Shown here: positions 13,151 to 59,848 of the stretch, piece by piece
Numbering within the stretch: the stretch's first letter is position 1
How the letters are laid out: every line of letters begins with the position of its first letter
Assembly (NCBI GenBank): GCA_002256025.1
Contig: NKIB01013009.1
Coordinates: forward strand, 1-64,000
Direction of reading: 5' to 3'
Source of the DNA: Asterionella formosa
Lineage: Eukaryota
DNA length: 64,000 bases
Notes under the pieces: generated by a model
Databases searched by the model: none
What the model was told of the DNA's origin: nothing
Seen by the model: only the letters and a program-made list of their open reading frames with translations
Program-made: the position numbers and the translations under genes

Positions 13151-14239
13151 AGAGTCACTTTTCAGGTGACGAACAAAAATGAGGTGAATGCTAGATATAT
13201 TATAATAAAATCTGTAGATTATATTAAATGGTTTCCTTAAGTAGACCCCTTGCCGATTTCAGCAATCCCAGGGCTGGAAAACTGAGGGGCAAGTAGCGTA
13301 AATTTTCTTTGGAAAATGCTAAGATAGAAATTTTGAAAATATACTTTGATGATGGGCAACACCGGACCTTTGGCAATTTTTGATTAGAATTTTGAAATTA
13401 TATGATGGGCAATAGCAAGCTAAAAATAACATTTCTTCTCCTTTGGTTGGGGGCAGTAGGTGAGCGAAGAGTCTAGGTTATGAAGCGCCTCAACAATATT
13501 GTACCCTACTACATGCCCGCAAATAGTATACAGTACACTAAACGGCAGTTATCTGTTGGTTAGTCTACACTTTTTGTAGACTTTTAGACTCAACTCAATT
13601 CCTCTCACGTACCAGGTTCAACGATACTCCTCAGGTGGCCGTACAAAAGTATTCAATCAAGTGTATACTTTCCACTTTCACTATCGGGGTGTGCTTTGTG
13701 GACGTACAATGTCAGTAGCGTAGTACCAGCAGGTAGGGGCCAATTGATATTCTACACCACCAGCCAGCGGCTGTTTTCATTTCCCGACTCGATCAACTAG
13801 TACCGGTTTGCTGGTATAGGTACAAATGTACCAGTGCCTGCCCCTAAACCCTGGTACCTGGTTACCAGGTACCAGGTAACATACCGGTACCAGGTAAAAA
13901 GTTGTACCAGGGTACTCACTCTGTCTAGTAACAGTTGCATCGATTCGCCGGGACCACCAGTGTCTTTACTGTTTGCATATAAAGGATTATGTAGCCAACA
14001 CACCAAATTTCTACGTGAGGGTCGGCTTACTCGAAAAAATGCGTTTTTTATGAGTTACATAGACGAGAACATATACTCGGTTTCTGTAATAAAATTTTTA
14101 GCAAAGCATTTCTTAGCTCTGCGAAGCGAATATCAAATGGAAAAATATGCTCATTTTCAAATATTCGAAAGTTTCATGATTCTATTTTATTCGTTGCAGA
14201 GCAGGCATCAGAAGTTCTACCTCAAATCTACCTGTAATT

Positions 14240-15200
14240 GACAAACAACCAAGCCAATCATTTTCTGCAATTCCACTATTGCAATATCCTAGCATCCTTC
14301 AGCGCTTTCAAAAATTTGTGACACTTGATAGAACTGAAAACATACCCCAAGCCACCACAGGGATCCCACCACATATTGATCACTCACAAAAATTGAGTGA
14401 GATTCTTCTAAGAGTCACTCAAATACCATCAATGATGATGCATCAGACAGAGGAAATCAAAGATTCTGTAGTTCAAGCAATTGAAGAGCATGACATCCGT
14501 GGTGGTGTCATTACAATCGATTTTCTAAATGATCGGTTGAAAGAGCATCACAAACAGCTTGAACAGGTGCTTTGTGATCAGCTTTAACAAGGTGGAACAA
14601 ATGATCAGGTAACTCGACCACTCTCTGAACAAGAAAACCAACAAGGTCAACAGAAGGGGATAGGTCATACTTTGTAATGCTATGATGGAAAGTTTTGGCA
14701 GGTCCCAAGGGGTTGGCAGTTTCCTGAAAAGATTCTCCATCGGACACGGTGGAGTCTATGGCAAAATGGACAACCAGGCATTGTCAGACCATTTCGCCTT
14801 CTTGATCCACCGTAACTATCCCCTGACAAGAAACTCCGGGATAGACTGAAATAAGAGTGGAGACCAATTTTCCAAGCACCAGACATGGAGATTCCAACAG
14901 GGTCAGACAATGTTACACCAGAATTTGTTGAGCAATCATTTCCGTAGGGAACTTATTATCTCGAGGCAAGAGCTGGATATGTTTGGGAGCGTTCAACAAG
15001 ACCTGAAGCTCTTACTATCAGCTCATGGTCTAAAAATGTTCAGCGGAATAATATTGAGAAGTTTGGGAATGATAATGACCATGCCAATCTTCCACCTCAA
15101 GATTGGCACAATGCTCTCCACAGCAATATACAGCAGTAGCGGCGCCAGCTTGCACCTAAGGTACTTGATCAAAGAAGAAGAGTTCATCAGAGAAACAATT
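14240..15200 (+). pseudogene. Decayed Crypton-like (stramenopile YR DNA transposon) C-terminal region
   Basis: Across frameshifts and stops: ATTGIPPH, DGKFWQVPRGWQFP, WSLWQNG, RPFRLL, WRPIF, TISSWSKNVQR..IEKFGNDND. These motifs resemble what I recall of oomycete/diatom Crypton-derived proteins. No catalytic domain is visible. Confidence 0.5.
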
Positions 15201-15439
15201 CTCCTTGACATTATTAGTGAATATTTATATAGATATATATCATATTATGTATATACTATAGAAAGCAAGTAAGTGGTAAACAAGCGGCTGGTGTAGCCAG
15301 AGATGTTCTAGTTAAAAGCAAGTGAGAAGTACAGCAGAGTTTCAGCGGGCACTACTGGCTGATGGGGGTTTATTTTTTAAAGGCTTTTTATGGATTACAA
15401 ACACACCACTGTTCCATGCATGCTATCACTAGACTATTC

Positions 15440-15701
15440 CTACTACTGAACGAATTAATATTTGTCATATCAAACCTTTTCATAGGTGAGAGGTTTTCCT
15501 TGATGTGGGAGAGTGAGCAATCTTGCTCAACTACAGATATACCTAAAAGGTTAGGTTTACATAGATATATCAGAACTCCATCAGGAGAGAACTCGACTAA
15601 TACCTTTGTGAATACTTGAGTCTCAACCTAGGAGATCGAGTTGCACACAAGAATTAACAAATAAGCTCATATATTCAACAAATACTACTACTTCTAGTTA
15701 G
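15440..15701 (-). repeat. Dispersed repeat family A, copy 1 (about 260 bp, inverted relative to copies 2 and 3)
   Basis: Reverse complement of 27578-27856 (e.g. aacctaggagatcgagttgcacacaag, taagctcatatattcaacaaatactactacttctagttag). Confidence 0.9.
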
Positions 15702-16664
15702 ATACTTTACCAGGTACCTGGTACCCCTGGTACCACCTAAAAACTGAGAGTCAACGTTTGAAAGATTTTGAACTGAGAGTCAATGTTAAATCGAGTAAAT
15801 TCACGTTTTGGGCTAAATATGCTAGATACGAACATAATTTTTCAAGCAATGTTGTAGCGATTTATGTACCAACCAATAATGATCATGCTTTAAACTCGTC
15901 AATTAGCTAGCGTTACTTCCATATTTGGTCCCAAAGGTTGCTGTTGATGAGAAATGAAATAAAAATGCTAAATTAAATTTTACTCCATTCAGCTGGCATC
16001 ACCTTTTATATATGTATTCAGGTATAAGAAAGTATTTCTGTCGGTAGATTCATTTAGTGTCCGAATAGATTTTTTTGTCATGGTAAAATAAATATTGACG
16101 TCATTTTGCATTCTCCTCTCCCTAAATGGAGAACATCAGCTGCGACCTCTTGGCATGACTACCTGAAACACTACATATGAGGATTTGTCATGAAATCACA
16201 AGAATCACCCGTGAAATGAATTGAAACAAGAGGAGGACCACTGGACAGATGAAAACTTGAAGTGATTGATATGCGAGGTCCGAATGAATCCCTGATGAAT
16301 ATGCTACCAGTACTGTTATCATCGGCACTTGAAACCATGGTACCTGGCACCGGTAGCTGGTACCGCTAATTATAGGATCAACAAAAGTAATAGAAAATAG
16401 TTTATCGGGTACCAGGTACTGGTACTAGGTGCTCCGAGTGCCTGGTATTTCAGTTTACATGGTGCGTGTATATGATGCTGTGTTTCATAGGATGCATATT
16501 GCCGTACCCCCGGCACTGGTAACACCACAGCAGTGGAATATTCTACCAGGCAAACCGGGTAGATATTATGATATGAATACATATATCGCTCGACAGCTGC
16601 ATATAACGGACTGACGTACGGACATTCTACAGCAAGTGTAGACTTTCATAGGGCACTTATACAT

Positions 16665-16892: not shown

Positions 16893-16953
16893 GTATGCTT
16901 TACCTGGTAAAAAAGTACAATCCTCATTAATATTTAGGACATGCACTTTAACC

Positions 16954-18435: not shown

Positions 18436-18544
18436 AGAGAACGTCAATGTTACGATCTTGGAAAGTGTAGGTTCACGTCAGTTAGTGTATTATTGGTAGA
18501 CTGGTCATTTTACCCTACAGAAGGTGTGTGTTTGACATACTCCA

Positions 18545-19583: not shown

Positions 19584-20210
19584 TGACTACTGCGCCTGTA
19601 CTATGATCTATAATCTATGATGTTGTCTCCTCTGCAGTAGGAACTGTGAAATGATTGATACGACAGATAAGTGGAATTCGCCTCAGAGCTTATCTGTGTG
19701 AATCATTCCTATTAATGGGTTTTCAATAAATACCTGCCGACGGAATCACATCGTTCGTGTTCGTCGAAAAACACGGAACGCCCCCTCGTCTCCGGGACAA
19801 ACGCGACGACAATTTCGGTACATTTGTACCTGTAGGCTTGTTCCGTCTGTTGGCAAGGCAGTTGTTTAGCGTGATAGATGGACAGAAGCAATGGTACGGT
19901 GGCGTAACAAGAAATGAAACTGTAGTGGAATGGTGCTACGGTACCAGGGGTACCTGGTACGTCATCCTAAGCATGCATTCTCTACGTAACCTGTTGTTAT
20001 TTTTGGAATATTATATTATGGCTGCGCAGACATGAAATACATACTACAGTACTGGTAAAATGCATCCTCACAGAATCGTTGTGCGTACGTGCGTACCATG
20101 GAGTACCAGGTACAGCATTTTTATCATACTGGTAATGATTTATTTCTTTTCATTTAAAATCTGCCTTTGACATCCATCACACAGTTCGTGCATTATTAGA
20201 AGGACACATC

Positions 20211-21588: not shown

Positions 21589-21684
21589 CCAGCAAGTTGA
21601 GGTAATTTTGCTGAAACTAAAGTTTTAGCTATCTTCATCCCAGATTAAAATGTTAGTTTAAGCAAAATGACCGCAACTTTAAGG
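21589..21684. mobile_element. MITE family 1 (96 bp, Tc1/mariner-type), copy 1
   Basis: TIRs CCAGCAAGTTGaGGTAATTTTGCT / AGCAAAATGACCGCAACTTtaaGG, with TA on both sides. Confidence 0.88.
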
Positions 21685-24050: not shown

Positions 24051-24232
24051 CCTGGAAGTTGCGGTCATTTTGCTTTGAATAAAGACTGTAATCTTGGGTA
24101 AAGAAAGCTTTTCGTTCAGCAAAATTACCGCAACTTCCAGCAAGTTGCGGTAATTTTGCTTGAACTAACAATTTAATATGGGATAAAGATAGCTAAACTT
24201 TTAGTTTCAGCGAAATTACCGCAACTTGCTGA
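24051..24232. mobile_element. MITE family 1, fused tandem dimer (copies 2 and 3)
   Basis: TA|CCTGGAAGTTGCGGTCATTTTGCT...AGCAAAATTACCGCAACTT-CCAG-CAAGTTGCGGTAATTTTGCT...GCAACTTGCTGA|TA. The two units share CCAG at 24137-24140. Confidence 0.88.
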
Positions 24233-25593
24233 TATTTTTGTTGATAAGGGGGCCATTCTCGACCGAGACCAAAGCATAGTGGATTTTGGTCGACGCGGTG
24301 GCTAAAATATATTTGTTTTTTCGACTTACATGACGTATCACAACGTGTAAAGACCCGCATCTTCAATTGGCTTGGTATTCGGTCGATGCGGTGGCGATGC
24401 ACTTACCGTTTTCAACAACCGGTACAGAAAAGTCCTGGTACAAGGTACCTGCTACTGAACCAGGCACTGTACCGGTTGAACTACGTTATTATTGAGGTAC
24501 CTATATGTACGACAGAAAAATTACAATTTGGGTTGATTTTTACAGTAATACTTCGGTCGAAGGGGTCTGTTACCCCGAGACATGTGTTCGTCATGAGTTC
24601 GCACACCTCAACCAATCACAATGTCAAAGGTAGTTTGATGATTGCAGGGGCAATAGAATCGCAATGTCGGAGTAACACTTGATGTTAGGGGTACCATGTA
24701 GGATACCGGTCATGGAGTTGAAATGAAGAATCTGGTGTGCAGCTGGCATTCAAAATATACTATGGTTAGAACAAAATGCAATATCCTCTACTTGAACTTC
24801 TTGTGAGTCACGGAAGTGTTCCCTCATCAACTTGACGTTTGTAGTGTATTGAAAGACTAAATAGTTTCGCCAGATGTTCAGTGATTTTTCACCCTGCAAT
24901 TGCTTGATCATGGTTTACATGGGAACCCTAACAAATCGGTTTAGATTTGTGTTCTCAATGTCTGTTTGTTCGGCAGATGTTCGACAGCTGTCAAATGCCT
25001 CTGCTGTATTTCAGCTACGTCACGGATATGCTTGTTCACCACGTATTAATTTTGTCCACAAACCAAGGGGATGTAAATTATTACGTCATCACTTCTGGTT
25101 TCAATTTCTTCGTTTGTACCAGGTACCGTACCGGTACCAGGTATTCTTTTTTTGGGCGTCGTAAAATTGATTTCTCTCAAATACCGGTACATACATACAT
25201 ACATACCAACCAACCAACCAACCAATGTGTCAGACCGGTATATCCATGTCGAACAGTGAGTGATACCGGTACCCTGGTAATGTACTTGGATCTTGTACTA
25301 TTGGAGCACCTATGTACCTCGTGCCTTCCATCCAGAGGTCATTACGTAGAGATTTCTCAAATTTTCGGGGAATTAATTGAACATGATTTCTTGCTTACGT
25401 TATCGTTTCCTCAGGTAGAAAGCTACGTAAAATATATAGTAATTGCAAGAGTTTACAAGGTCAACAGCTTTCTATTCCATCATCCAAACGAAACTTCACA
25501 ATCTCACTGGGTTCAAAACGAGACAGCGACAAAGTTCAAATCTTTGAACTCTCTGATAATTAGCATTTCGTTCCTTGCGCAACCTTTCCTAGC

Positions 25594-26793: not shown

Positions 26794-27405
26794 ATGAGGA
26801 GAACGAGCAAGAGCGATGATGACTAAAAGGCCTATTTGCACCACAATAAAGACGAGTGAGAATCACTCGCGATTCATTTAGGAATTGTATAATAATGGTT
26901 TATAACTGCTTCGAAGAGAAGCAAAGGTAAGGACTTGGTCGAATTATTTTATTTTATTGATTTCTGCCTATATATCTAGTTTCTCAGAGGATTTCTACTC
27001 TTAGAATTGAGGGCGGTCCCTCAGGTGCTGCTTCTAGCTTAAGGACGGACAATGGCTACTGGTACGGTGGGTTTCATGAGTCATTCAAGTTAAAGCTATG
27101 TAGAAATCTTATCGTATATCGTTCTGTTTGTGTATACATGAACCGGTATGTACAACGGTATACTTCCAGAATCTGTCAACACTCTGCCTCGAACAAGTCA
27201 CGAGCTGCTTGCTCTTCGCCTTGCTGGATTTTGGTTGGTACCAGGTACCTGGCACCAGCACCGGTGGTACCAGGGTACCTGGTACCAGGTACCTGCTTTG
27301 TTGCAGTGTTGCGGAGTCGTGGAACTGCCAGCGGCACCTAAAATTTGGATGAGGGGATATCATGATTGTTATGTACTACCGGTACCAGGTACCAGGTACC
27401 AGTTA

Positions 27406-27501
27406 CCTGTAAGTTGCGGTCATTTTGCTTTTATTAACATTTTGATCTCGGATGAAGATAGCTAAATCTTCAGTTTCAGCAAAATTACCGTAACTTGCAG
27501 G
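27406..27501. mobile_element. MITE family 1, copy 4
   Basis: TA|CCTGTAAGTTGCGGTCATTTTGCT...AGCAAAATTACCGTAACTTGCAGG|TA, 96 bp, embedded in a GGTACC array. Confidence 0.92.
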
Positions 27502-27577
27502 TACTGGTAGCTATGAGGAAACCGGTTTTCTACGATTTGATTATCGCCGCAACATACCGGTACCACCGTGTTAAGTA

Positions 27578-27856
27578 ACTAACTAGAAGTAGTAGTATTT
27601 GTTGAATATATGAGCTTATTACCCGTAATTAATCCTTGTGTGCAACTCGATCTCCTAGGTTGATACTAAAGTATTCAAGTAGGTGTAAGTCGAGTTCTCT
27701 CCTGATAGAGTTCTGATATATCTATGTAAAACTAACCCTATAGGTGAGTCTGCAGTTGAGCAAGATCACTCACTCTCCCACACCAAGGGAAAACCTTTCA
27801 CCAAGCAAGAATGAAAAGGTTTGATATGACAAATATTAATTCGTTCAGTAGTACTA
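27578..27856 (+). repeat. Dispersed repeat family A, copy 2
   Basis: Direct repeat of 29358-29548 and inverted repeat of 15440-15701; core begins tgttgaatatatgagcttatt. Confidence 0.9.
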
Positions 27857-35100: not shown

Positions 35101-35869
35101 TTTAGTTGAGATTCTGGTTGGATTGTTGTTGCTGTGCTTGTTTTGGGGGGATGGAATGGGATTATAGAGGACCATCAATTCTGATTTTCATCCCCAATCA
35201 TATGTCAACCTCCATGTCCACCAGTTTCAATTTCAGAAACTAGTCGACCACCTCTGGAATGCAGCATATTGCTGTTTCTGTTGTTGTTGTTGTTGTTGTT
35301 GTGTGTTAAAATATAGGGCAAAATTGAAATATTAAAAACGGAAATCTTTTACATAAAAATCATTTTGAATACATGCTACCTCACTTCTAAATTTTTTTGA
35401 AATGACATACGTTGGTGGATTGAAATAGAAATTCTATTGAAATGAATACCGGTAGTAAACCTGAATTGGAAACTTCTATGATGCCGCCTTCCAATTAGGC
35501 CCTAAATGACACAATTTGTTAGAAATTTCGCTCTTGACTCCAGCTGCGCCGTAATGTCTCCTGACGTACGAAATGTCTTTTTCTTTTCTTTTCTTTTCTC
35601 TTCTATACAGTTTTATAATTTTGTAATTTAAAATAAACTCAATATTATATTTGTCACGGTACGAGGTAGGGTGTTGACATTTGACTTTTTGCATAGGATG
35701 CAAGGCGAATGCCCTTCACATTGAAAGCTTTCCCTTTGCGGCCAGTTCTCGCAGTGATATGAATGCTTACTCTGCCAGACCCTACGCATCGCTTCATCAA
35801 GAGTCCATTGCATAAAGAACGATCCACAAGAAATATCGTGAAGAACGGAAATGGGGACGAAAACAGAAA

Positions 35870-40442: not shown

Positions 40443-42164
40443 GATCACACAGTTGCATTGATCATTGCTAATTGTTAATGTTGATGATTGTATTTGTACT
40501 CGAGCAGACTCGATCGTTCTGCGGCTCAGAGCACAATAAATGTACCGTAATAGATTTTGAATAAAAATATTCCCCTTGTCGCAAATCATCATACCGGCGG
40601 TGGTGCACCGTCCTGGTTACCAGGTAGTTCCAGGTTCCAGGTACCAGGTATGACCCCTACATGGACAAATAATGGTGAGCGAGCGAAGCTATCACCTGAG
40701 TTGAGTCACGAGAGTGACTACGGTACAACAACCGGTGGAACCCGGCTCAAAATATACAAGATACCAGTACATGTATCATACTCCGGTATACTACCAGGTA
40801 CCAGGTACCTGTAACTGTGGCTCTTTTCGAGGACCGCAGAATGACTTTGGAAGCGATGATATACCGGTAGGTAAATAAGAGAACTGCGTAGAAGTTGAAA
40901 AGATGAAAATTCGATATTACGGACAAGGACGGACCCTATAGTATACCAGGCAAGCACCGGGTGATACAGACCACGTGACGCGAATCGAAGGAGTCGAAGC
41001 TGAGAGATTAATATAGCGACAACGCGACTATTAAGCTCTAGCTTTTAGAGTTGAATCGAACAACCAAGAGTCGGCAGCTAAGACAAGGAAAGGAGGCAGC
41101 ATTCACGCGAGGTTAAACAAGTGAAATAGTGCAAGTGTGAAGCACACAATTCTTTGAATAACGATTCAGAGAAGCAGTCTAAAGCATCGCCAAGCCTTTC
41201 GCAATTTATAGTATAAAATCACCCACCCTACGTCCCTTCTATGGCAAAGCGCAACTCGACTACGCCAGAACCCGGAGATTGAATCCGAATTTCGATGGGA
41301 AAGGGACACGTTTACTTAGCACCGAATTCAAAAACCATTTATGCTACTTCTACTTTGTATTTCTGGCTCGCTATTCTAGTATGCTATGGTTCGATTTTAT
41401 ATATTCCAGCGAAGTACCCACAAAGCCACTGCACAGACTACATATGGAGAAAGACGAAACGGACGAGACGGTATTTGTGTCGAAGTTACTTCGGGGTTAC
41501 CAGAAGGATGGAGCTTACCGGTACCTGGTAGTCTACCGTAGTACATATGGTTAGTAGAAAGCTCACAATGAGTGAAGTATGCTGTAGTAGAGCAGAAAGT
41601 GAGTTTCTGACGTTTTCTAACCAAGATCTAGAAGTAGATCAGGAGAAATAGCTATGTACCAGTATGGGTGAGTATGAAATATAGTCGTATACTATGTACA
41701 TACTCAAGAGCAACTGGTACTGCTTCCGGGTACCGGTAGTAGATTTTAACTCTGGTATCGGTACATATTCATTTCCTACCCGGTATATGTGTATTGTTAC
41801 CAGGTACCGGTAGTCTACCTGGTACCATAACAGTTGTCGTCCATATGGCTGGTAGTCTATATATTTTTTGAAAGCATCTACCGGTAGACTACTTCTCTAG
41901 GTTGCATGTCTTCATAGCTACTGTTATTTGAGCGACCCCTTCATGAGCACTCCATCATGAGGCTATATTCGCGATGGCAGAACTACATTATTATTACCAC
42001 AAAGAATTGATCACAAGTGCATCCGAACTTAAAGCATAATCTTTAGTTCTGTTATTTGTCTCCAAAAGGGCTGTAAGTTGAGTTATTGATTGTCATACTC
42101 TTTAGGCCGTTCAAATATTAGCCATAGAGCATACCTTCTATGCACCCTATACGATTAAATCAAA

Positions 42165-43281: not shown

Positions 43282-43992
43282 TACTTTTTCATTGAAGAAA
43301 GCTAATATACTGCAGACGTCATGAATCGAAAGGTGGGCTATAGTATATTGCAGTGTAAATTTCTTAAAACAAGGTGATCACTACAGTTTTCTCTTAAATA
43401 GATTTAGAAAAATGATGTGAAAAATTATCAAAGTCGAACACATCTTTGTGCAAATGTGTATTATTCAAGAATATTCGAACAAAAAAGAAACATGATGCAT
43501 TGTGACATCACAAACTAATATTAAATTTTTTCATTAATATTAACAACAAAAACTGAAATCGTTGCTAGAATTTGTTTTGGTCGACGTTTGCTCAATTTTA
43601 AAGATGCAACCAAAGAAGAGACATCCTTGAATTCGTAGTAGCTAGCTTGATAACTTATGCTGGATGATTATTTCTGTCTACTGAACAAATTAATGAGAAA
43701 CATTGAGAAAATGAAATCTCGGAAAGGAGGGGCACAGCAGCTCAAAATGCAAGAAAATATTTGAGTGAATTGTTGTGTACTGACTTTCATGTATGTACTT
43801 CAGGTTGTGGTTCATGTTCCTATGGAATCTTGATTAGGTCATTTTGAACTTACATATAGACATGCAACAATATGCTGCTTCTTTGTTAGGCAACTAATAA
43901 TACGCATCCGACATACAAAACTAGGTATATAGTTAAATATGTTTTCAATGTTAACTGAAAGGGCAATGTAGCGGCGAAAAGCGCGCCGATAG

Positions 43993-44220
43993 CTAGGTTG
44001 TGAATTGCCTAGTTGAGACCGTACTCGGGAGGAGTGTGATAAATTGTGATCTTTGTACCTGGTACCTGGTACTTGAATTGGCATGCCCTCGCAGGTAGAC
44101 CTTCTCGCAACGCCGGAGTCGCCGTTCATTCGGTCAACCTACCGGTACTCGCGCCTCCCAAGCCTCGAACAGCCACAAGGAGAATACTCGCAGGCGGCCT
44201 CGGTCGTGTCTTACCTTCAG
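43993..44220. repeat. Dispersed repeat family B, copy 2
   Basis: Same orientation and blocks as 16665-16892. Confidence 0.9.
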
Positions 44221-44447
44221 CACTATACTTGCTCGTAGAAGTACAGTACTGGTACCAGGGGGTACCAGGGTGCCAGAGGCGGTACCGGTAAGCAAGTACG
44301 GAGTGCGCACTGGTAGTATATAACATGATAAACTTGCGGGAGTGTCCATATTTATTATATTATATACAGTCAAGCGTTTTGTAATAGCGAAGAAGCAAAT
44401 TCAATTTTTAAGTCACAAAAAATGCCACAGCAATCAACAGGAGCACC

Positions 44448-47381: not shown

Positions 47382-48327
47382 AACAAGAGAATTTAGGCCG
47401 CGGCAGTGTACTGGCTTGGTATGTTCCAGATCGTTGGTAGCTCGCAAGCACCATTGTGAAATCAAGTCAGTTGGCGCTAAATATTTGGTAGAGTCTTGCA
47501 GTGCCGCTTGCATGTTTGAAAGAGGACCATTGAAATTGATTCAGCTTATATTTATTATTATAAAACTAATGGTTCAAACCTGAACAACACCAAACTCACA
47601 AACGCGGAGCTGCACATCACGGCAAGCGCTCAAACACAGGTGCTTCTACTGCAAACGCTGCAGTCGTAGCATATTATGACGCTAATGATAGAATATGCTA
47701 CTCTAAAATGGATTGCAAGTCGCCAATTCTTGGCACCCAACATAGCTAGCTATAGCATAACAAGAACTAGCAAACAATTTGCAAGGTCGTGCTTGATGGC
47801 GGAGTGCAAGTTTCGTCGACACTGTCTTTTTTAGTCGGCGAAGTAGTTTCGGTGGATTGCTTACGTAAAATCTATATATGTATCAAAATGACTGCCTTCG
47901 TTAGTCAAACCTGATCACAAATGAGTTCAGTGTGACAAGTCATGATCTATGTGAAAGCTGAGTAATAGCGCTATAGGAGCAAACTATGGGTGCAACTGTG
48001 TATTAATCTTCGATTGAGTTGATATGTAGTTTCTATGAATACTTTTACATTCATGGTAATGCTTGCTTGTACTGGCGTGTCTGTTCCATTACTCATGTAT
48101 TATTACATCATTGTTTCCAGTAGTATTGCAGTCTGTCAATTTCTCTGAGATCATTTAGCTGATTGCTTAGTCATGATCGCCAATTGAAGGGGTTCAACAT
48201 GGGTTCGACCACGACATCGTCCTCGGGGTTTGCATCGAGCAGCACACTGTCGAACTCAGTCTCTTCCCAATGATTGTACGTAGGGTCATACCAGTCACCG
48301 CTTCAGGTCGAATCGAGAAAGGTGAAG

Positions 48328-49257
48328 TTAGAACGTCATGTCCATTAAATATAGGAAATCATCCTTTGGAATGGACTCGTCAATATTATCGACTGACCTT
48401 TTGGAACCCATGGAAGACCCCCTAGTCAGAGTTGGGGACATGATAAGCGATGAAATGTCTTCTTCATTCTGGAATGGATCGACAAAATGAGAAAGCCAAG
48501 AATTTTCCTCGTTGACGTCGTCCAAATGTTCCGGAAGCTTTGAGGAGCCTGGTACCGATTGGTCCAAATGAAGAACTTCGGGAGTGTTCACCGGTGACGT
48601 GGGCATCAAAGTCGGAGTCGCATCTTCGTCACTAGTGTCGTCGTTATTGGGTATCGTCTTGATCAGTTTGGCACGACGGTAAAAAGTATCATTGCTCATG
48701 AGAGGCGAAACAACGCTAAGTTGCGGGCGCTCTTGCTCTGCAGTCGTCTTGTTCGTTGATGCTCCACCAATGGTCTTCCGAGAATCTTGCACGGGGTTCG
48801 CTTCGCATTTCCGCTTCGGACGGTCATGCCCTGTCAAAGAAGACGAAAGCGTAGGAGCATCCTTGTGCTGAGCTCGAATTGTCGGCGCTCCTTCCCTCAA
48901 TGCCTGACTTGTCTTGGCCATAGCCTTAGCGTCATCAATCTCAACCCAATAGCTTCCAAAGCCGGTACCTGTGTCGCGTTGCAGAAACCGCCCGGACGGA
49001 ATCTGAGCTTGCACCAATTCCACGACCTGTCTGGCGACCCTTGCTTTCTCTGCCTTGCTTAAAGCCAAGTTGTAATCGTTCTTGTAGACCTTGACGTAGT
49101 CGCGGAAGACTTTGTTGCCTTCGTGCGAGTTGATACCTCCACCCCGTCCAGCCAGAACATCGTTGGGGTGAGGTGTCCTTATTCGTTTGACTGCGCCGTG
49201 CGATGCCGAGTTCACAAAGAAATCTCCTGTATGCTGCGGGATGTTCATCATCATCAT
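48328..49257 (-). CDS. DUF6824-domain protein (diatom-expanded family)
   Basis: PHPNDVLAGRGGGINSHEGN..FR...GRFL...WVEIDDAKAMAKTSQALRE. Confidence 0.88.
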   Translation of the reverse strand: MMMMNIPQHTGDFFVNSASHGAVKRIRTPHPNDVLAGRGGGINSHEGNKVFRDYVKVYKNDYNLALSKAEKARVARQVVELVQAQIPSGRFLQRDTGTGFGSYWVEIDDAKAMAKTSQALREGAPTIRAQHKDAPTLSSSLTGHDRPKRKCEANPVQDSRKTIGGASTNKTTAEQERPQLSVVSPLMSNDTFYRRAKLIKTIPNNDDTSDEDATPTLMPTSPVNTPEVLHLDQSVPGSSKLPEHLDDVNEENSWLSHFVDPFQNEEDISSLIMSPTLTRGSSMGSKRSVDNIDESIPKDDFLYLMDMTF

Positions 49258-50302
49258 CGTTTGTGGTGGTGGGTGGGAGTCTAAGTTGCTCTAAAGTGAG
49301 TGATTTGAATGGGGAAAGTTGAAAGTTGTGAAAGAAGATGAACAGCCTTCTCGCGTTGTTGCGTTGTTCCTGTATATAAACTGTATGTGTTCCTGCTTCT
49401 ATATGCGTTTTGCTTCGTGTAGCTTTGTGTCACTGTTGTTCGTTTCAACAATTGTGAGCCGGCAGACAGTGGCAACTGAAAACAACACAGAGAACCAACA
49501 CACATCAAAAGGAAAGAATTCCATGGCCTTCCTGCAAACAACGACACTTACGTGGCAAACGAGAATAGGGTGACGACATCATGACGTTCGTATGAAATTC
49601 CTATGATCTGGTTGGACAAGATCCACGTACACGTCATTATTTGACACTATCCTCCTTGAACTGGTAATGACTTCTTCGGCCATCTGATGCCATCACCTCC
49701 GAAAAGACTATGTGATGACTGTCTTAACAAACGTATGTAGAGATAACGGCATAGGGTTCGCGCTGAGTTTGCATCATATTTCCATGTGTCACGAATCAGG
49801 CAGCTCAGAACGATGCATAGTTCTTGTTGATACTTGTTACATACCGGATATGCATTAAACAGAATTAGTCATCATTCTGACACTAATCGACCCCGATGAC
49901 GGAGTGCCAAAATGCTTTGGTTCGTTTCTTGTAAAATGTATGTAGAGCAATGACACGGACACCCCTGGTGTGGAGCAAGCAAGCTTTTCGTTTCATTTCA
50001 TTTACATACCCGGAGTGGGTGAAATTGCAGTAGCAATACATATCAAAGATAAGAACATCACTCAATGCTACCGGTACTCGAGCACCGGTGCCTCCCACTG
50101 GAGCAGGAGTGCTCGGTACCAGGTACTTGCATACTCCACGTGGTACATACAAGGGAATTCTACCGGGTGGACCCAGGACCAGGTTCGGTCGTTGAAGTTT
50201 CTTCACAGAAAATAATGAAGCCTTGTACATACTTAGGGTTGCAAATAGCATCATATTCATACCTATATGTAGTTATGTAGGGTAGTATTCTACCTACCGG
50301 TA

Positions 50303-50397
50303 CAGCAAGTTGCGGAAATTTTGATGAACTAAAAGTTTAGCTATTTTTATCCGAGATTAAATTGTTTCTTTTAAGCAAAATGACTGCATCTTGCACA
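50303..50397. mobile_element. MITE family 1, copy 5 (more decayed)
   Basis: TA|CAGCAAGTTGCGGAAATTTTGAT...AGCAAAATGACTGCATCTTGCACA|TA. Confidence 0.82.
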
Positions 50398-51000
50398 TAT
50401 CTTAGTTCTATGTGGATTTACGGCACCAGGGTACCCTGGTACCACTTCCGCGAGGGGGTTCTGGTGCGTGTCGACCGGTACATAGAGCAAAACGACTGCC
50501 GGCGTCCTATTTACCGGTACTGTTCCGGTACTTATTTCTTCTAAGTCCTCAGGCATTTGGCACCTCTCAAAGTTGACAGCAATCGAAAATTAACATACTA
50601 CCGGTATCAATCTTTTGGCGAGAAACAGAATGATGAAATATGCATTGCCTCGGTCCAATGCATTCGAAAACTGAATGGATATGCAGCTTGTACTGATCAA
50701 TCTCACTTTACCGTTGTGCCATCGAAGGCAATCTGAGTAATGCATACTTTCACCTTTCAGCGTACCTCCAATCGACTTCCGAGCATGCGTGGTCCTAATG
50801 GCTACCAGACAGCTACTTGCTTTGACGTTCGTCCATCACAGCACTAATATTTGCGACAGCATCATCAAGGGGGTAACATACTTATTCCCTTTAATTAAGC
50901 AAAATATCCCAAACTTTTCATTAGAAAGTTCCGCTGTAGGTCAATTGCCGTTTGCTCATGCTTTACTTAGAATTCCATTGAAGCGTGTGTCCCATTTCAT

Positions 51001-52329
51001 CTAGCCTAGGTTCTCAGCCAGCTCTTTGGTTGCTACAGCTGTCACTCGCACCACTGTCTGTTTCGTTACCAAAGAAAAGCCAATGTATTCATACTGCCAT
51101 CCAAATTTTCTACAACACTCTCGCCATGCCCTGAACTCATCTTGTCTCCACGTCGCATGACATAGATACTCATCAAACAACAACATTGTCCCTGGAACAA
51201 CCCGTCCATGAAGATTCTCCAAAATATCCAAAGTCGAAGAATACAAGTCACAGTCAATGTTGGCATACGCCAAACACTGATCCTTTCGCACAGTCTTCTT
51301 GAACTTTGGGATCGAATCACAAAATAATCCTTTGTGAAATCGTACATCACCTTCCAAAAATATGGGAACTATTCCACCAGTACTATACGAGCCCTCCGGT
51401 TCCCTCCCCCACGCCTGTGGTAGGCCCATAAATGTATCAAACCCATGAATAGTTACACTCAGTGGCAACAACTCTTGAGTCATACGTAAACTTCGGCCCG
51501 AAGCGACACCAAATTCACACACGAGGCCCCCATCGGCGATAAGAGGCGCCGCATGAGACAAGGCCAATTCAATCATGTCGCGGGTGCCTCGATGCAAATT
51601 AGCTCGATCAACTTTTCGGGTATGCCATCGTACATATCCCCATGAGTCGACCAAACACGCAATGTGAGCTTCTGATTTGCGAAGTTGCTCCATGAGAAGT
51701 TCAGCTTCTTCCGTTTCACCAAGTCGTTCCAAGGCGACAGCAAGGTGGAAGGCAAAAACTCGATTTAAAGGCGCTAGCTCAAATGCTTTTCTGTATGCGA
51801 CTTCAGCCGCCTTTAAACTCCCCCCAGCTGCCTCGATGGAAACCCCCAAGCCATTGTAACTCACTGCTGACGGGTAGATATCAATGTCACACGCATCTTG
51901 ATAGAGACGCATTGACGCTCTTGCATCCCCCAAGGCATCGTGAGATAGATGCGCCAATCTAACACATGCGTAGGACAAAACAGCACGCACATCGTCTTTG
52001 GAGAGGAGAGTGACATGTCCAAACTCGTCGGCGGATTCCAGACAACACTGATAGAGGGTGGCCGCTTCATGGAACGAAGCAGCTGCTGCTCTGGCTCTTC
52101 CTGACTTTTCCATACGCATGCCGAGCTGAAAAGCTCTATCGGCCTCTTGTACAATTGCATTGACCGGTGTTTGCTGGTCGTTGATGAAGTCAACGACGGC
52201 GGAAGGGTTGAGTGAACGCGCAAAAGTTGATTTGGCAAGGGATGTTCCGAACAAGCGCTGAAAAGCAAAGGCGGGTGTTGTTGATAGGGCCAGTGCGGCT
52301 AGCGATGAGATACTGGTAGAGATTCTCAT
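51001..52329 (-). CDS. TPR-repeat plus TylF/MycF-like class I O-methyltransferase, with a bipartite plastid-targeting-like leader
   Basis: Leader MRISTSISSLAALALSTTPAFAF, TPR-like helices, then EFGVASGRS, HGFDTFMGLP, KGLFCDS, NIDCDLYSST and LFDEY. Confidence 0.85.
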   Translation of the reverse strand: MRISTSISSLAALALSTTPAFAFQRLFGTSLAKSTFARSLNPSAVVDFINDQQTPVNAIVQEADRAFQLGMRMEKSGRARAAAASFHEAATLYQCCLESADEFGHVTLLSKDDVRAVLSYACVRLAHLSHDALGDARASMRLYQDACDIDIYPSAVSYNGLGVSIEAAGGSLKAAEVAYRKAFELAPLNRVFAFHLAVALERLGETEEAELLMEQLRKSEAHIACLVDSWGYVRWHTRKVDRANLHRGTRDMIELALSHAAPLIADGGLVCEFGVASGRSLRMTQELLPLSVTIHGFDTFMGLPQAWGREPEGSYSTGGIVPIFLEGDVRFHKGLFCDSIPKFKKTVRKDQCLAYANIDCDLYSSTLDILENLHGRVVPGTMLLFDEYLCHATWRQDEFRAWRECCRKFGWQYEYIGFSLVTKQTVVRVTAVATKELAENLG

Positions 52330-52477
52330 GGAGATCAAAGAAAGTTGACGATCACCACAAACCGTCAATCAGCACGAGTCATTCAACCAACAGGCAACAC
52401 TGGAGTGGATAGAAATATATGTCATCTGAAGGCAAACGAATTTCAATCTTTATCATGGCACAAAGTGCGTGCATGCA

Positions 52478-52880
52478 ACCAGGTACCGGTATCTATTTGC
52501 ACGCGGAGGCCATGATGACCACATCGCACATGCATGCGTACCGGAACTGGTACTGTGTCTACCTGGCGGTCCTGGTACCGGTATCCGGTATGCATACCGT
52601 TATGCTACCTGGTTCTGTATACCACCATAACCAGGTACCAGGTACTGGTAAAAAAATCATGCCGGTACATTGATCTACTGGTATTTATGCATGATAGAGA
52701 CTAAAACCGGTAGATATGAATGAATCACACTACCAGGTACCAACCAGGTACCGGTACTGTAAGATTGTATGCCGTTATGACTGGTAAAAAATACCCAGTT
52801 GCTGCTGTACATAAGTAACAACGTACCAGGTACCTGGTGGGTACGTATGACGGTGAACATTACTACCGGTACCGGTTCTA
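52478..52880. repeat. Palindromic TACC(W)GGTA / GGTACC array (largest example of about 18 intergenic clusters)
   Basis: Repeated accaggtaccggta, ccaggtaccaggtactggta, gtaccaggtacctggt and taccggtaccggt between two divergent genes. Confidence 0.9.
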
Positions 52881-53207
52881 CATAACCCTAGCAAATAGAG
52901 GGGAAGGTAAGAAACCCAAGAAATAACAAAGCACGACGCTACCCGGTAAGCAAGAAGCAATTCGGAAACGAAGCAAGGAGCATCAGCAATGCGTTATCTT
53001 CGGCGGGGTCGTGTAAACGCTCGTCGCCATTATTATTATTTTCATCCCGAATACATAATCAACCGTCGAAGTTGTTGACGATGGCAGGAAACTTGTTCCA
53101 TACGTCCAGAGTGTAGAGTAGATTCTAGTCCATCGACGATTTCACATTAATATCAGCCCTTTTTAGTATCTGAAGACTCAGCCAATCTGTGCAATCATAT
53201 TCGAACA

Positions 53208-54227
53208 ATGGCGAGCACAACGCGACGAAAGAACGGAATGTCCGGGCCTCGCAGTTACATGCAAATATCAACGTGGATCTTCCTACCGACATTGGTGACA
53301 GAATTCCTCCTCGTTTGTTCCCCGAATCTTCCGCTGGCAGCGTCAATACCAGTCACTCTAATATTTTGCGTATTGTCGTTTCTTGCTGCGATCTATGGCT
53401 ACCTTGCAACCGTGACAGATGCCATCGACTCCCACTTGGCCTGTCATTTGCGTGACCAAGGCGACAGCACACCTGCTGCTGCACCAACAGGGTTCCTGGC
53501 TCTCTTTTACCGCCAACCTTCCTTCACGCCAGCTCAAATAGAAGCTGAATCAACCAAATACTGTTGGGTATGCGAAACAAGCGTGGCACAACACTCCATG
53601 CATTGCAAGTATTGCAACAAATGCATCTCTAATTTCGATCATCACTGTCAGTGGCTCAATACATGTGTCGGCAAGCACAATTATCCATATTTTTACAAAA
53701 CGCTTTGGTATATTTCGGGAGCGCTGCTGGTTCATGGACTCACGTCGCTGGCGATTGCCATTGACATTCTGGCACATGGCACGTCAGAACAACGAGCCAA
53801 CGATTGGTTAGGGGGCAGCAACCTGAAGGCATTGGTGGTGGCATTCTGTTTTGTTTTTGTAGCTTTTGACACTGTGGCCTTTTTTTTGATTGCACAGCTA
53901 CTCTTGTTTCATATTTCCTTGAAACGAGAGAAACTCACGACCTATCAGTTTATTTTAAAGGACAATCAGCGAAAGCGAGACTTGGCAAAAATTAACGAAA
54001 CTATTAATTCAAAGCGCATTGTTGCAATTCGGAAGGCCAAGCAAGAAGGCAAGACTTTGTTATTCTATCAACTAAAATGTGGAAAATATTGTAAGGCATG
54101 TGATCCCTTGGTGCTGGAAGTCCCACCCTCGACCCGACAAGAAGCGCCGGAATACAGCAATTGCGAAGAAATTGATCTTGAAGAGAGTAAATCAGAGAAC
54201 GACGAGGACTCTAGGAATGCACTGTAA
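53208..54227 (+). CDS. DHHC palmitoyltransferase
   Basis: RRKNG N-terminal motif, C..C........HCKYCNKCISNFDHHCQWLNTCVGKHNY, four TM segments and TTYQ. Confidence 0.96.
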   Translation: MASTTRRKNGMSGPRSYMQISTWIFLPTLVTEFLLVCSPNLPLAASIPVTLIFCVLSFLAAIYGYLATVTDAIDSHLACHLRDQGDSTPAAAPTGFLALFYRQPSFTPAQIEAESTKYCWVCETSVAQHSMHCKYCNKCISNFDHHCQWLNTCVGKHNYPYFYKTLWYISGALLVHGLTSLAIAIDILAHGTSEQRANDWLGGSNLKALVVAFCFVFVAFDTVAFFLIAQLLLFHISLKREKLTTYQFILKDNQRKRDLAKINETINSKRIVAIRKAKQEGKTLLFYQLKCGKYCKACDPLVLEVPPSTRQEAPEYSNCEEIDLEESKSENDEDSRNAL

Positions 54228-55099
54228 GAAAAACAATATATGGGGTATTGTAACTATTTTTTGGCTAAACAGAACTCTTGCACGGCTTCTCTCGTTGTAA
54301 ATTGTGAGGGTACTTTAGAACTAACATCGTAAATGTTGTGGGGTAAATTATAATTGTGCACTTTGGTACACAGTCCAAGCTAGCGAAGTCAACTTGATTG
54401 ATTACTTAGAATGAAGACATTCAGTCGTTCAGTCGTCTGCCTCGTTTCTATGATGTCCAACCATGGGGACTCTTGAATCCTGTCTGATAGCTTCGATCAA
54501 GAGACTGAAAACATAATGATTTTTTTGGAATGGAAATATTGGCCGTATAAGTTGTGTCATTGTCATGTACTCCGTTATCTATTCTCCTGGTGGGGTTCCT
54601 AGTGGAGCTGGACAGAAGGGAAAGAGTTCGAGCTGAGCATTTGTACGAACTCAGAAATTTGCTCCTCTGGAGTTAGCAAATAGCTAAAGTATAGGACACC
54701 ACAAAATCAAAACGAGCGATAATATGGCAATCTGTCGTCTACTGGCCCAATGGTACGGCTTCAACTGGTCTAGTGCTGGGGCTTAACAACCATCTATTTA
54801 AATAAGCCCTTTGTGTTTTATTCGCAATGTGAACCCGCTAAAGTAAATTTGCGCTTGTACTCTTGGCGAATGGGTTGGGTCATTCACTGGAAACGGAAGA
54901 CAATACTCCTTAGTTGTTTATGATAGGAAATTTGGACTTCATATTGCTTGTTCTTGTCCTTTGTAAGCTACGTACTGTGTGAGTAACCTACAAAATTACT
55001 AGAGCCTCCTCTATACATCGATAGTATTGTTAGGAAACATTTACTCTTATTCTTGACCTATTTCTGAGTCACACACTATCATTAATTAGCTTGATGTGA

Positions 55100-55800
55100 T
55101 CGATGCTTCAAGATCAATGTTGACACCATGATACCAAATCTTCCATTTTACAACGAATGAAAATACATTGTACTAGCCATCGCCATTGAGCCCAGCAATC
55201 GAGTCATAGTACTAGATAACCATCCAAGGAAGTAAATAAAGTAAATGTGGCTGTGGGTTGCCAAATTCTAATACCATAATGATTGATAGCACCAACACAA
55301 CCATGGTATTCATGTCACTTTGTTCTGACTTTATCCATTTCATCTGAAGCGCATTGCAGCTCCACAAGGCTCTCTTGAAATTTTATTTCTTCAGCAATCG
55401 ATGGAATTAAAGCAATTATAAACTTCTCAGGTATCTTATATATGGATGTAACTAGTACCCACATTAAACCCTAACATGCATCAATGTATGTTGAACCTCC
55501 CAAAATGCGAAGTGACAAGTACATGATTTCATGAATGGAAAGTGCCCACCTGCTGCTTGTTCTTCTAGGATGTTCATTCTGTTTATCCGATTTTTAAGCA
55601 ATCCCTAGACCAATGAGGTTTCTCAATAATTAATAAGTAAATCGAGAAATTCAAAACATTTCACGAAAAGTGACAGCATCTGCTGGTCAAAAGTCCTTGT
55701 TTCTTCCTTTCGTTAACAAAGTCTGATCAATCAAATTGGTCAACAAAGTAGTGAAGCCAACAAATATAACCCAAAACTGCTAGGTTTCTTGCAAAATCAC
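55100..55800 (-). pseudogene. Decayed PIF/Harbinger (HARBI1-like) transposase
   Basis: Minus-strand fragments FREMF*ISR, LRILGGSTYIDA (about 55478-55512), EIKF...L...S.E and YHGCVGAI (about 55285-55308). Confidence 0.62.
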
Positions 55801-57824
55801 ATGTCTTTGCTTGTCTTGCGAGGTACCTATAACAAGGGACGATTTAGTTGTTTTTATTAGTTCACCCTTTCATGTTTTACCTTGTTCCAACTTACACCTA
55901 CTACTACCCTTGCGTTCCTTCCAGACAAAATCATGATATTTCTTCATCATGATATGAATCATCATCCATGTCAAAATCGTCATGAATGACATGGCTGGAA
56001 ATGGAGGAAGTACTTACTACAGACCCATGATTGTTACATTTTGAAGGCTGTTCAAATTGCGTTGTTGGAAGTGGATCAATCATGGGTGCAAAGGAGAATG
56101 TTAACATAGGTTTGTGTCTTCGTCTTCCGCAGTGGTGAAATTGGTGGATGATCCATCGGAAATGAATGCCGAAAGCGGTGCTCCGGATTGAGTGCACTCC
56201 TAGTCGGTTGAACTGATGACTGGTTGTAACGACACACTTTGTGCTGGCTGGTTCTTGGTCCCACTGCTCCATGTTGTAGCCGCCATTTTTGGAAGGAAGA
56301 GTGGCTGGTTGTTGGAAGTAGCCAATGTTGATGACTGTTCACTGAAATATGATGATGCTTAGGGGAATGGCTTAATTGGTTAGCACACCTCATGAGGTGG
56401 CAGTTTCGATTCTTGCATTCTCCATCACCCCATCCCTAGGGGTCCAGGGAGTGACAAGGCTGACAAAGAGACAGATCCCGTTGTACTGTATGGAAAAATA
56501 AAACCGGTACTAATTGTTTCCATTCAAGTGGGCACATGTGCAATTATTGTATAGCTTTAACATACTATAAAAAATTTATTAACTTTATATTTTAAATCAT
56601 CCATGTCATACTATATCACCATCACCACACACACCGGACCAGCACAACACAACAGCTCAGGAAACAGCAATGATAGCCCGCCCTCAAGCTAAATTATGAT
56701 TGGCTATGCAAATAGCACATCACGTTTTAACAGCAAATTTGAGATTCAAATATCGATTTTGCTGATAAAAAAATTTGCCTTTTTTCCATGTAATTATCAG
56801 AAAAAAGATACTCAGATACTTTTTGACATCATATCCCCAGGTTTACTTATCAGCACGTGTTTTCATCAGAAATATTATATTTTATCAGCCCTTCAAGGTT
56901 AGCTAAGGTAATGCGTAATGAACCTGAACCTCACTCCAGTGGATGTTGCAAAGACGATGCTTGAGGATGCACAATTCACGTCATCATCCATAGCGGCATA
57001 TACCGTACAGCTATCGTCAGCCACTGATGTATTCAGGAGTGGTAAATATCATTTTTATATATTCATATATTAATAATATTATGCTCCGATGACATGGTTA
57101 CAGTACCCTAGTACCAGGTACGGGTAGTCTATGTACTATAACGAACGGTAAATAGCTATACCAGGTCAAGGACCAGGTACCTGGTACCAGTTACCAGTAA
57201 AAAACTGCCATGACCCATTGAGAATATTTTTGAACTGCCGTGACCCATTGAACGCAGAATAACACGTTTTGCAATCAAAACTTAAATAAATATAGATTTT
57301 GAGAGTTCTGGCTCCTTCCCGAGCATATAGGCTAGTCAGCCATGTAATTAGTTTGAGATTTGGAGCAAGTTGTTCATCTCGATAGATTGCCTGAAATGGT
57401 CGATCGACCGAAAAACCATGAAGAACACGGATTAGGGTAAGTTTAAAAGTCACCGCATCATATGATATACGACGATCTATATAATGATTTGAACCTTCAC
57501 CTCATTTGCGACAATAAAGTATATCTTGTCTTGGTATTGACTTCTACGGAGAGATGGCAAATTATTTAGGCGCACGGCATCATCATGCAAATGCGTTATG
57601 TATGATTACGGGTATAACAGGTAGGGAGTACATACCAGGTTTTCATTGCACCTTTCTAATAACACGCATGACAAGTGCTTTAACACATGACCTAATCCGT
57701 CCTCGAAAATGTATATAAATTTATATACGTTTATCCAGAAAAAAGTATATACTGCCGTGACCCAGAAATCGTTAAATCAGAATTCTAACATGACAGCTTG
57801 ATTGATCGATGCTGCTCTGACACT

Positions 57825-59235
57825 GGGCGCGCTCTGATAATAAAAAATTATTATATCATGTGTGTATTATAACACAAATTATTCTGGTGATCTGCTACAT
57901 AATATCGTCCGTGCGCTCTGATAATAGAGATATTTTAGATTACTTCTCTGACATAATATATATATTTTTAACTTTAATTTTCAACAGTTAAATTTTCATA
58001 TCAATGCATCCTCTTGTATGCTATGCCGCCTCTTGTTCATTATATGCATGAGTTCTATATATTCATCATCGTCGGTCACTGACCATGTCGACTTTCATCT
58101 CATCTCATCTCCTGATGATGATGATGATGATGACATTATGATCACATTGCTACTGTTAACAATGTGCTATCCACCAGTAAATAGGACACCATCGTTCAGG
58201 GAAAGTTTGACTGTTGATGAGGTCAGAAGAAGAAGTGGCAAAATCCGATGCCACGCACTACAGCATCCATTATCGAGTCCATTCTGGACTTGTTCAACAG
58301 CAAGCATGATGATGCTCTGATTACCTTGTGTGGGTTTGACCATGCTTCTTTCGAGCTCCTACACCAGCTGTTCAAACCTTGTTTTTATTCCTTCACTCCC
58401 TGTAGGAAAAATACGGATTTCATTGTTAGAAATTCAACAACAAAGAAAGGTCGGCAAAGATACCTCTGTTCCATCAGTTGTCTAGCGCTTGGGTTAGCAT
58501 GGACCAGGACTCATGGTTCCTATATGATTCTTCAGATTATTTTCGGATTAACTCATGGTTCTTTGAGTGTTTGGTTGAGGTTTTCAAAGCGAATGATTGT
58601 AAAAGTACTGCTGACACATGAAGATGCCGTTGTGAGACTGTCTAGTACTGCAGACGAAGACACCTTGTTTGCAACCATGATCAATCAGAAATACCCACTT
58701 CCAGAAACACCAATCTGAGAAACACCTGGGACAACTATCCTACTGTCCTCATAGTCACTGACAAACTCATCAGCACCAGTGTCATCTTCATTCTCGTCGT
58801 CGTCCTCCTCCTCTTCTTCTGGTTGAGTCTGTTGTTGTTCTTGTTGCTGGTGACGGCGACGTTCAAGCAGCCTTGAAGAGGAAGGGAAGCCCTTCCTGGC
58901 TGCTCTCCTTTGACTAGAAGAAGATGAAGACATGGCCGAAATCTAAAAGCGATGATGATCGATTTATTGAGGAGGTTGATTGATATGTAATGATATGCAT
59001 ACCTATTTTGGCAAGAGCAAGCCATTTTGAGTATGAGCAAGCAAGTCTTAAAATATTCCTGGAAATTCTATATAGTCATTCATGTCTATACATCTTTTTA
59101 TATAATGCACTGTTATTTATAACTGTAAAAAATTTGTGTTTGTGTTTGTGTTGACCCAAATTTTGGGGTTATGGGTACAACGATTTGTGTTATGATACAC
59201 ATGATATAATAATTTTTTATTATCAGAGCGCGCCC
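57825..59235 (+). mobile_element. Internally deleted PIF/Harbinger-superfamily element (1411 bp) with a 3-bp TSD (ACT)
   Basis: About 53-bp TIRs GGGCGCGCTCTGATAATAAAAAATTATTATATCATGTGT... at both ends, with ACT at 57822-57824 and 59236-59238. The plus-strand transposase N-terminus (DDALITLCGFDHASF...GRQR...LAWTRTHG...IFG...WLRF) abuts a convergent acidic ORF at 58685-58933. Confidence 0.92.
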
Positions 59236-59848
59236 ACTATCGAACAAACGGATCCGCAATTCGGTAGAATTTACCATTAGTCGGAGGAGTCAAACAAACA
59301 CCCTAACTCAATGGGTCATGGCAGCTTTTTACTGGTACCTGGTACCAGGTACCAGATACCATCGACGGCTTCGTCTCCTCGTCATGCATACCTGTCCCCG
59401 TGCGATACGATAAGTATTGTTGCAAAACGATGAGAGAACGTGAGAGATCTTCAGTTGAGTGTTTCCTTTCTTCTGTTGAGGAAGGTCACCTTGACGATCA
59501 ATAGCTTCGCTTTGTCGTGCACCACGGTACGTCAATTGAACAGCAAAGAATGAGAGGCGGTAACTTTGCGTTAACTTCTACCATTGATCGTCCGTTCTGC
59601 ACACACTGGCATTAATTATTGCTCCGTGGTCACATCATTTTATCGTGTTTCGACGCGGATTGATTGTGTTTGCATGCAGGATGTCTTCCAAGCAGCTTTA
59701 TATCTTGCCTTCGAAACAGGCAGCGAATGCTTCAGTTTTCGGTCGACCATTGTTCCATACAACTGCTTCCTTACTGACCCCACTGATGCAATTTTTAGAA
59801 CTCAGCAATATTATTTTCAGCTTGTAGTGAAAATTCTGAGACGAGCGC

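Follow-up and report, generated by a model that had tools for sequence, protein, structure and literature searches.

TA-bounded words abundant in the genome of Asterionella formosa as probable stacked excision scars of pogo-type transposons

The window analysed here comprises 64,000 nucleotides of Asterionella formosa (contig NKIB01013009.1 of assembly GCA_002256025.1, positions 1 to 64,000) and is densely dotted with three short words framed by TA: TACCGGTA, the 8-mer, and TACCAGGTA and TACCTGGTA, which are the two forms of a 9-mer, TACCWGGTA. We regard it as likely that these words were left as end-joining scars by cut-and-paste transposons of the pogo type, that two families of elements have produced them, and that the scars have stacked upon each other. 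A sequence-only reading of the window had described the words as dense, nearly absent from exons and promoter-proximal, and this observation is confirmed as a whole. The window contains 62 exact words (27 TACCGGTA, 23 TACCAGGTA and 12 TACCTGGTA), compared to a mean of 0.5 and a maximum of 3 in 100 dinucleotide shuffles. The genome-wide word count that had been proposed as a check shows a strong over-representation of both words: in the 68.4-Mb assembly of 15,436 contigs there are 28,528 copies of TACCGGTA and 26,886 of TACCWGGTA, versus 1,718 and 902 copies of the respective reversed patterns. The bases added by the ~55,000 words make up ~0.5% of the genome.

The words were further characterized in a sample of 455,859 bases, comprising the window and 40 stretches from six contigs (L-numbers used below denote loci of this genome). 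With 172 copies TACCGGTA is the top 8-letter word of the sample, 55-fold above the order-2 Markov expectation, and TACCWGGTA with 141 copies is the top 9-letter word, 43-fold above it, its two forms being nearly equal in number (CCAGG 67, CCTGG 74). Lesser relatives are also present, namely TACCSGGTA (16 copies), TACCAGGGTA/TACCCTGGTA (20) and TACCAGTA/TACTGGTA (105). The last pair exceeds the other one-change neighbours of TACCGGTA (9-18 copies) six-fold or more, a surplus that CpG decay of TACCGGTA would give. Open reading frames (ORFs) of at least 250 amino acids starting with ATG hold only 8 of the 313 words, though they span 34% of the sample, while the 52.8 kb upstream of long ORFs contain 167 words and the 54.0 kb downstream contain 26, an approximately six-fold difference obtained with ORF starts used in place of gene starts.

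Comparison of paralogous copies by an all-against-all alignment of ~0.9 Mb (367,500 bases in alignments) revealed 131 contexts with six-base indels, 28 of them framed by TA, 11 tandem and 92 of other kinds. All 28 TA-framed cases belong to a narrow set: 10 are TACCGGTA itself, 7 are TACCAGTA/TACTGGTA, 3 differ from TACCGGTA by a single change and 8 consist of two stacked one-base units. Among the 40 six-base insertions that could be polarised, with one filled copy against at least three empty loci, four are TACCGGTA and three are TACCAGTA. A direct search found a matching empty site for 12 of 355 TACCGGTA, and in 11 of these the flanks hold no copy of the insert. Two such sites lie inside the window: TACCGGTA at 35447..35454 is a six-base insertion relative to a plain TA in the paralog L061, and at 44140..44147, where the window has TACCGGTA, paralogs such as L083 have just a TA. 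Insertions also occur inside decayed transposons, and the homologous arrays of L141 and L030, which are 97% identical over 905 bases, differ by whole, unlike units in TA phase. The earlier claim that the words are stereotyped insertions at TA is supported, for the 8-mer by the TA-framed indels and 12 empty sites, for the 9-mer directly by one site and this one pair of arrays.

The 8-mer resembles the ends of one group of elements, both in sequence and in the surroundings of the target. In a Pfam search 93 of 116 candidates match DDE_1, and TA-flanked terminal repeats read CCGTAAAACC, CCGTATACTT and CAGTGAAACC; exact ends of the form TA|CCGT number 415, and 40 of 42 CCGT ends examined have the TA. 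The copy at L133 has an open frame of 421 residues with DD35D spacing, and sequence identity between some of the CCGT copies is 100% across 1.95 kb, to which assembly collapse could contribute. Since DDE_1, the DDxD triad, short terminal repeats and TA duplication are found together in the CCGT/CAGT elements, they agree with Passer, Tigger, pogoR, Lemi, Mover as well as Fot of the pogo superfamily (PMC7386202); further pogo families are described in PMC7325037. The base preceding TA is distributed alike at CCGT ends (A14 C8 G12 T6) and at TACCGGTA (A117 C76 G102 T49; p=0.99), and TACCAGTA/TACTGGTA share this flank with the 8-mer, whereas the 9-mer differs (p=2e-15). The sequence-only reading had pointed to Tc1/mariner elements with CC..GG ends as the source; TA-flanked elements with matching ends and flanks do exist, but they are of the pogo type, and no classical Tc1 was found (0 of 16 candidates match Pfam DDE_3). 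Another TA-flanked element, with CTCCCTC ends, was noticed at L059:2846-3681, and we take it to be Stowaway-like.

The 9-mer shares its surroundings with a second group, ended by CCAG or CCAC. The base before TA is G at 34 of 36 of these ends and at 233 of 282 9-mers, unlike at the 8-mer (p=1e-14); 20 of the loci behind the former count were retrieved with a query that included 12 bases of flank, and an unbiased count agrees with it. Among 449 exact TA|CCAS ends, which belong mostly to derivatives of ~750 bases, 311 are preceded by GG, as compared to 6.7% of all TA, and TACCAGGGTA shows the GG flank of the 9-mer as well. In the window this group is represented by a (C)CAG-ended, non-autonomous, pogo-like element of the L198 family at 57194..59335 (~750 bp without its nested insert), with TA on both sides, whose family is a candidate source of the 9-mers. 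A decayed (C)CAC-lineage element end, TA|CCACCTAAAAACTG, lies at 15733..16030 on the plus strand; its positions 15911-16030 are 71% like L199, and the other end was not found.

TA is present at 36 of 37 CCAG/CCAC ends and GTAC precedes CAS at 28 of 31, which means that CAG may be the true end of these elements and GTAC their duplication, the 9-mer then being a three-base scar. On the other hand, the site at L082, with the target CTAC, favours TA duplication. In a table of xTACCWGyTAC contexts x varies more than y (88 vs 39), and later scars at the left TA change x too; x equals y in 5 cases vs ~2 expected. The chances that the group duplicates TA (with CCAG ends) or GTAC (with CAG ends) appear about even.

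The transposase of the CCAG/CCAC elements has 178 relatives, including proteins of 800-1000 residues without a Pfam match, some of them named from Fragilaria crotonensis. Three residues, D447, D596 and D634, are invariant in 34 relatives (DD37D) and stand in register with the DD35D triad. Neither DDE_1 nor a CENP-B-type helix-turn-helix was matched in any of these 34 relatives or in fragments (Pfam), the profile comparison with the DD35D pogos was not significant (E 0.32), and nothing significant came back when PDB sequences were searched with its profile. The closest Atlas clusters are DDE_1 (0.96), and the top six fold matches are all to Mos1 (probability 0.97-0.99, E 0.007-0.03, none at E 0.001 or better). 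By its triad and predicted fold this transposase appears pogo-like. It departs from the pogo superfamily in its length of ~900-1000 amino acids, DD37D spacing, lack of a Pfam match and near-strict GTAC target; the pogo paper lists TA, TAA and TAAA duplications, with no GTAC in its accessible part (PMC7386202). As to the autonomous transposase with matching ends that the earlier reading had asked for, the DDE_1 pogos and the CCAG/CCAC lineage are candidates for it, except that the two long CCAG/CCAC copies read are broken.

The mechanism that we propose builds on the overhang details of Tc1/mariner excision and on the scar of Sleeping Beauty, in which a central A:A mismatch yields the strand-mirror forms TACAGTA and TACTGTA. 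In the case of the TA|CCGT-ended DD35D pogos, CCG overhangs would anneal over CG to give TACCGGTA, and a one-base overlap would give CCSGG, so that TACCSGGTA would form less often, and most of TACTGGTA/TACCAGTA would be CpG-deaminated TACCGGTA. The (C)CAG-ended elements, whose insertions lie almost only at GTAC, mostly within GGTACC, would leave overhangs containing CAG; their annealing with a central A:A mismatch would produce TACCAGGTA or TACCTGGTA in equal numbers. Such a scar would turn GTAC into GTAC-CWG-GTAC, adding C after the first GTAC and G before the second, and GGTACC would be rebuilt, so that further visits could stack units into arrays. Because mitotic excisions in a unicellular host would all be heritable, scars could come to outnumber elements ~100:1. 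The 88-bp miniature inverted-repeat transposable element (MITE) of the window, which duplicates CWG, would be a later user of the centre of the 9-mer.

The event itself is of a known kind: after end joining a few terminal bases stand between two copies of TA (PMC2874221), and the footprints of the pogo element Passer contain 0-4 bases (PMC9976928). The arrangement seen here resembles that of Sleeping Beauty, Tc1 and Passer footprints. However, the known footprints come from assays and single revertants, whereas here there are ~55,000 natural copies, stacked in arrays. A literature search among sources with few subscription papers returned no account of genome-wide or stacked natural footprints, nor of these words in diatoms.

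The claim that repeated visits create new targets, made already in the sequence-only reading, agrees with the ability of the 9-mer to rebuild GGTACC and with the mixing of units in arrays, although excision as such is something we infer. A unit is touched by 164 of 292 sampled GGTACC sites (56%). CCAG/CCAC elements stand back to back at C5997:6128-6164 and C2608:1108-1137, with one 9-mer between them or one common GGTACC; in both pairs one site was reused and both elements are still in place. We consider doubtful a further-reaching version, a ratchet in which the footprints of a GTAC-duplicating DD37D family rebuild their target and write more than half of the genome's GGTACC sites, the promoter-proximal tracts thus created acting as shared landing pads for unrelated elements (the CWG-duplicating MITE, perhaps a Gypsy) and being recruited by the host as cis-regulatory or nucleosome-excluding DNA.

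Several observations weigh against an origin of the words as pogo scars. No excision event, and no site that is filled by an element in one copy and scar-bearing in another, was observed in the ~0.9 Mb. The 9-mer accounts for 1 of 66 seven-base indel contexts (TA to TACCTGGTA at L082:4777, without a template in the flanks), a thin basis, and 0 clean empty sites were found among 304 tested; equally thin is the comparison of chains, of which 3 of 276 have a usable homologous partner (one identical, one with a substitution and one with a whole-unit difference). The 9-mer abuts 93 of 311 GG-flanked ends (30%) and 173 of 584 GGTACC sites (30%), and these equal rates mean that adjacency demonstrates targeting rather than authorship, the elements using scar-made sites freely. 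Scars of the CAC type are not enriched (three copies of TACCACGTA) despite the numerous CCAC copies, and the ORFs are broken both in the transposase-bearing L198 (3.5 kb) and in L199 (2.9 kb). Finally, CCGG fits a footprint of 0-4 bases, but CCWGG places five bases between the TAs, more than in the known cases, unless the duplication is GTAC, when it leaves three.

The rate of adjacency would also fit if the 8-mer were a pogo scar but the arrays of 9-mers were a minisatellite that slippage, unequal exchange and A/T flips templated by hairpins had enlarged from rare seeds, and on which elements merely land. Tandem Repeats Finder indeed reports 7-base arrays, a period shared with slippage minisatellites, a single de novo 9-mer insertion was seen, and in 25 of the 81 pairs of neighbours both units are the same. 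However, slippage should yield identical neighbours in one orientation, and we found that 56 of the 81 pairs differ, that neighbouring 9-mers have the same orientation in 19 cases and the opposite one in 14 (p=0.49), that 60 of 141 9-mers are solitary and that the longest chain in the sample has four units. Mixed units, random orientation and short chains are unlike slippage, and together with the template-free insertion at L082 and the unlike units that distinguish L141 from L030 they make a minisatellite improbable. It may also be asked if transposase-independent repair, or some other element, writes the insert at TA, the match to pogos being a coincidence or due to shared target ancestry. 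Authorship is indeed read from matching, the words number ~55,000 against some hundreds of element ends, and other insertions, TA-C/G-TA and TAGCTA, have no assigned source; but the flanks offer no local CCGG template, and ends and target flanks match independently for two families, so that we find this explanation quite improbable. We consider it very unlikely that motifs for transcription factors or for nucleosome exclusion, acquired through substitutions and held by promoter selection, account for the words: their palindromic form and upstream excess would suit such motifs, but each appears at TA as a complete insertion, even in decayed transposons, where a promoter role is not to be expected, and the surplus of TACCAGTA/TACTGGTA is what neutral CpG decay would give, even if selection may act on retention.

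The source favoured by the earlier reading, i.e. the local MITE, taken as a mariner-type element that duplicates TA and gives rise to the words through its CC(A/T)G ends, was tried and rejected, and we find it hardly conceivable. The MITE, characterized by the termini CAAGTTGCGG...CCGCAACTTG, was said to be 96 bp long and to read TA-CCWG...CWGG-TA. Many copies have such ends and several sit beside arrays, but the 96 bases resolve into an 88-base core, a duplication and one flanking base on each side, and neither the CCWG ends nor the TA duplication belong to the element. TA occurs at both expected places in 15 of 33 copies, and copies with direct triplets often lack it (AAC|GTT, CAC|GTG). Classification of the flanking triplets in the 33 copies gave 17 direct, 4 inverted and 12 too decayed or shifted to be classed; counting C(A/T/C)G on both sides, 17 are direct and 3 inverted (p=0.003), 2 of the 3 at the junction within 24055-24228. 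Both CAG/CAG and CTG/CTG occur, and CCG/CCG once. Direct CWG triplets mean that the MITE duplicates CWG and lands in the 9-mer; 9 of 17 reconstructed targets read TAC-CWG-GTA. The product expected from MITE excision with both duplications retained, TACCWGCWGGTA, occurs once in 456 kb, and the MITE is thus not the builder of the arrays. Its CWG duplication is like that of the NuwaI group of PHIS, described mainly from animals (PMC4482050), and of zebrafish Harbinger3_DR, whose target AAACACCWGGTCTTT (PMC3016246) has as its core the palindrome ACCWGGT that the MITE prefers. No partner with DDE and Myb/SANT ORFs and the same ends came to light, though no search was aimed at one. In the window, cores lie at 21593..21680, at 24055..24228 (two adjoining cores, 24055-24137 and 24141-24228, with one CAG common to both), at 27410..27497 (one of the few with inverted flanking triplets, CTG/CAG) and, in degenerate form, at 50306..50393.

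The scars that we propose are accompanied by other short insertions. Fixed insertions at TA commoner still are TA-C/G-TA (90 contexts), TAGCTA (28) and a few TACATA/TATGTA (e.g. window 29409, 58643 and 12560), and short indels here seem to be dominated by scars. Four-base insertions outnumber two- and five-base ones (L047, L055, L075, L036 and others); in polarised cases a three-base duplication is accompanied by C/G in 24 and by A/T in 4 (e.g. CAG-C-CAG, AAG-C-AAG), and these are probably scars left by elements that, like the MITE, duplicate three bases. Scars of hairpin opening were dropped from consideration because the insert is fixed and is not a mirror of the flank. As to strains and haplotypes, 20 of the 24 public runs listed contain part of window 44001-54000, and four runs compared with 40001-57300 at 88% likeness gave, for example, 44-45 gap letters over 44786-55502, the indel table consisting mostly of repeat copies; when a haplotig of 36000-55500 was looked for, nothing but repeats and one paralog turned up. 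Scans of metagenomes gave 0 relatives among 176 candidates with a protein query and two unrelated contigs with a 20-base pattern.

Within the window, 15 clusters had been delineated earlier; 44 of the 62 words fall inside them and 13 clusters contain an exact word (only one each at 16338-16560 and 19940-19960), while 24418-24480 and 50425-50445 contain none. The chaining of units through a common TA, also reported then, is seen e.g. at 13863, 27239-27398, 40792 and 44056. A word search delimits the array at 13863..13896, with three TACCAGGTA and one TACCGGTA; the chain TACCAGGTA/TACCTGGTA/TACCCCTGGTA at 15708..15732 adjoins the CCAC-type element end, and the chain at 44056..44071 reads TACCTGGTACCTGGTA. 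Mixed chains are found at 25117..25145, 5' of a gene with an HSF domain, and at 27239..27398, where two of them with six exact words lie next to a MITE. Words and a chain occupy 40618..40869, 5' of the tubulin cofactor D gene on the minus strand, and clusters of seven exact words each lie at 41516..41886 and, between divergent TylF-like and DHHC genes, at 52484..52871. The CCAG element is bordered by an array on the left (57112..57193) and by the chain TACCTGGTACCAGGTA on the right (59336..59351), ~500 bases before a CAP-Gly ORF; DUF6824 is also among the domains encoded in the window; like the HSF gene, the relatives from Fragilaria crotonensis and the freshwater origin of the public runs, it fits a freshwater diatom.

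The insert nested in this element (57825..59235) has GGGCGCGCTC terminal repeats, an ACT duplication, a decayed ORF without a Pfam match and a high copy number, with the empty site preserved in L188 and L194; judged by its duplication it looks like an ANT-type, PHIS-like element, similar to Pangu (PMC4482050). Other repeats include a 581-base high-copy repeat at 40913-41494, between two arrays and head-to-tail elsewhere, a dispersed 270-base family (15441-15715, 27565-27853, 29329-29497) whose members terminate next to arrays of the words, tandem repeats of coding type (306, 81 and 57 bases; 3-2313, 3757-4180 and 5091-5722) and a Mutator-like transposase fragment (PF20700; 34213-34689, minus strand) within the region paralogous to L061.

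Transposon footprints usually count as rare curiosities of assays. If the words are indeed pogo scars, footprints would be the most over-represented words of this genome, with ~100 past jumps recorded for each surviving element, and they would constitute a repeat-writing mutational route into promoters that is distinct from slippage. In such genomes a motif search would then report scars as if they were regulatory sites. The transposase family directed at GGTACC, which has no Pfam model, would be a sequence-selective cut-and-paste enzyme. TA-bounded words that are abundant in other eukaryotes may likewise be scars of their own Tc1/pogo elements, an idea that would become testable.

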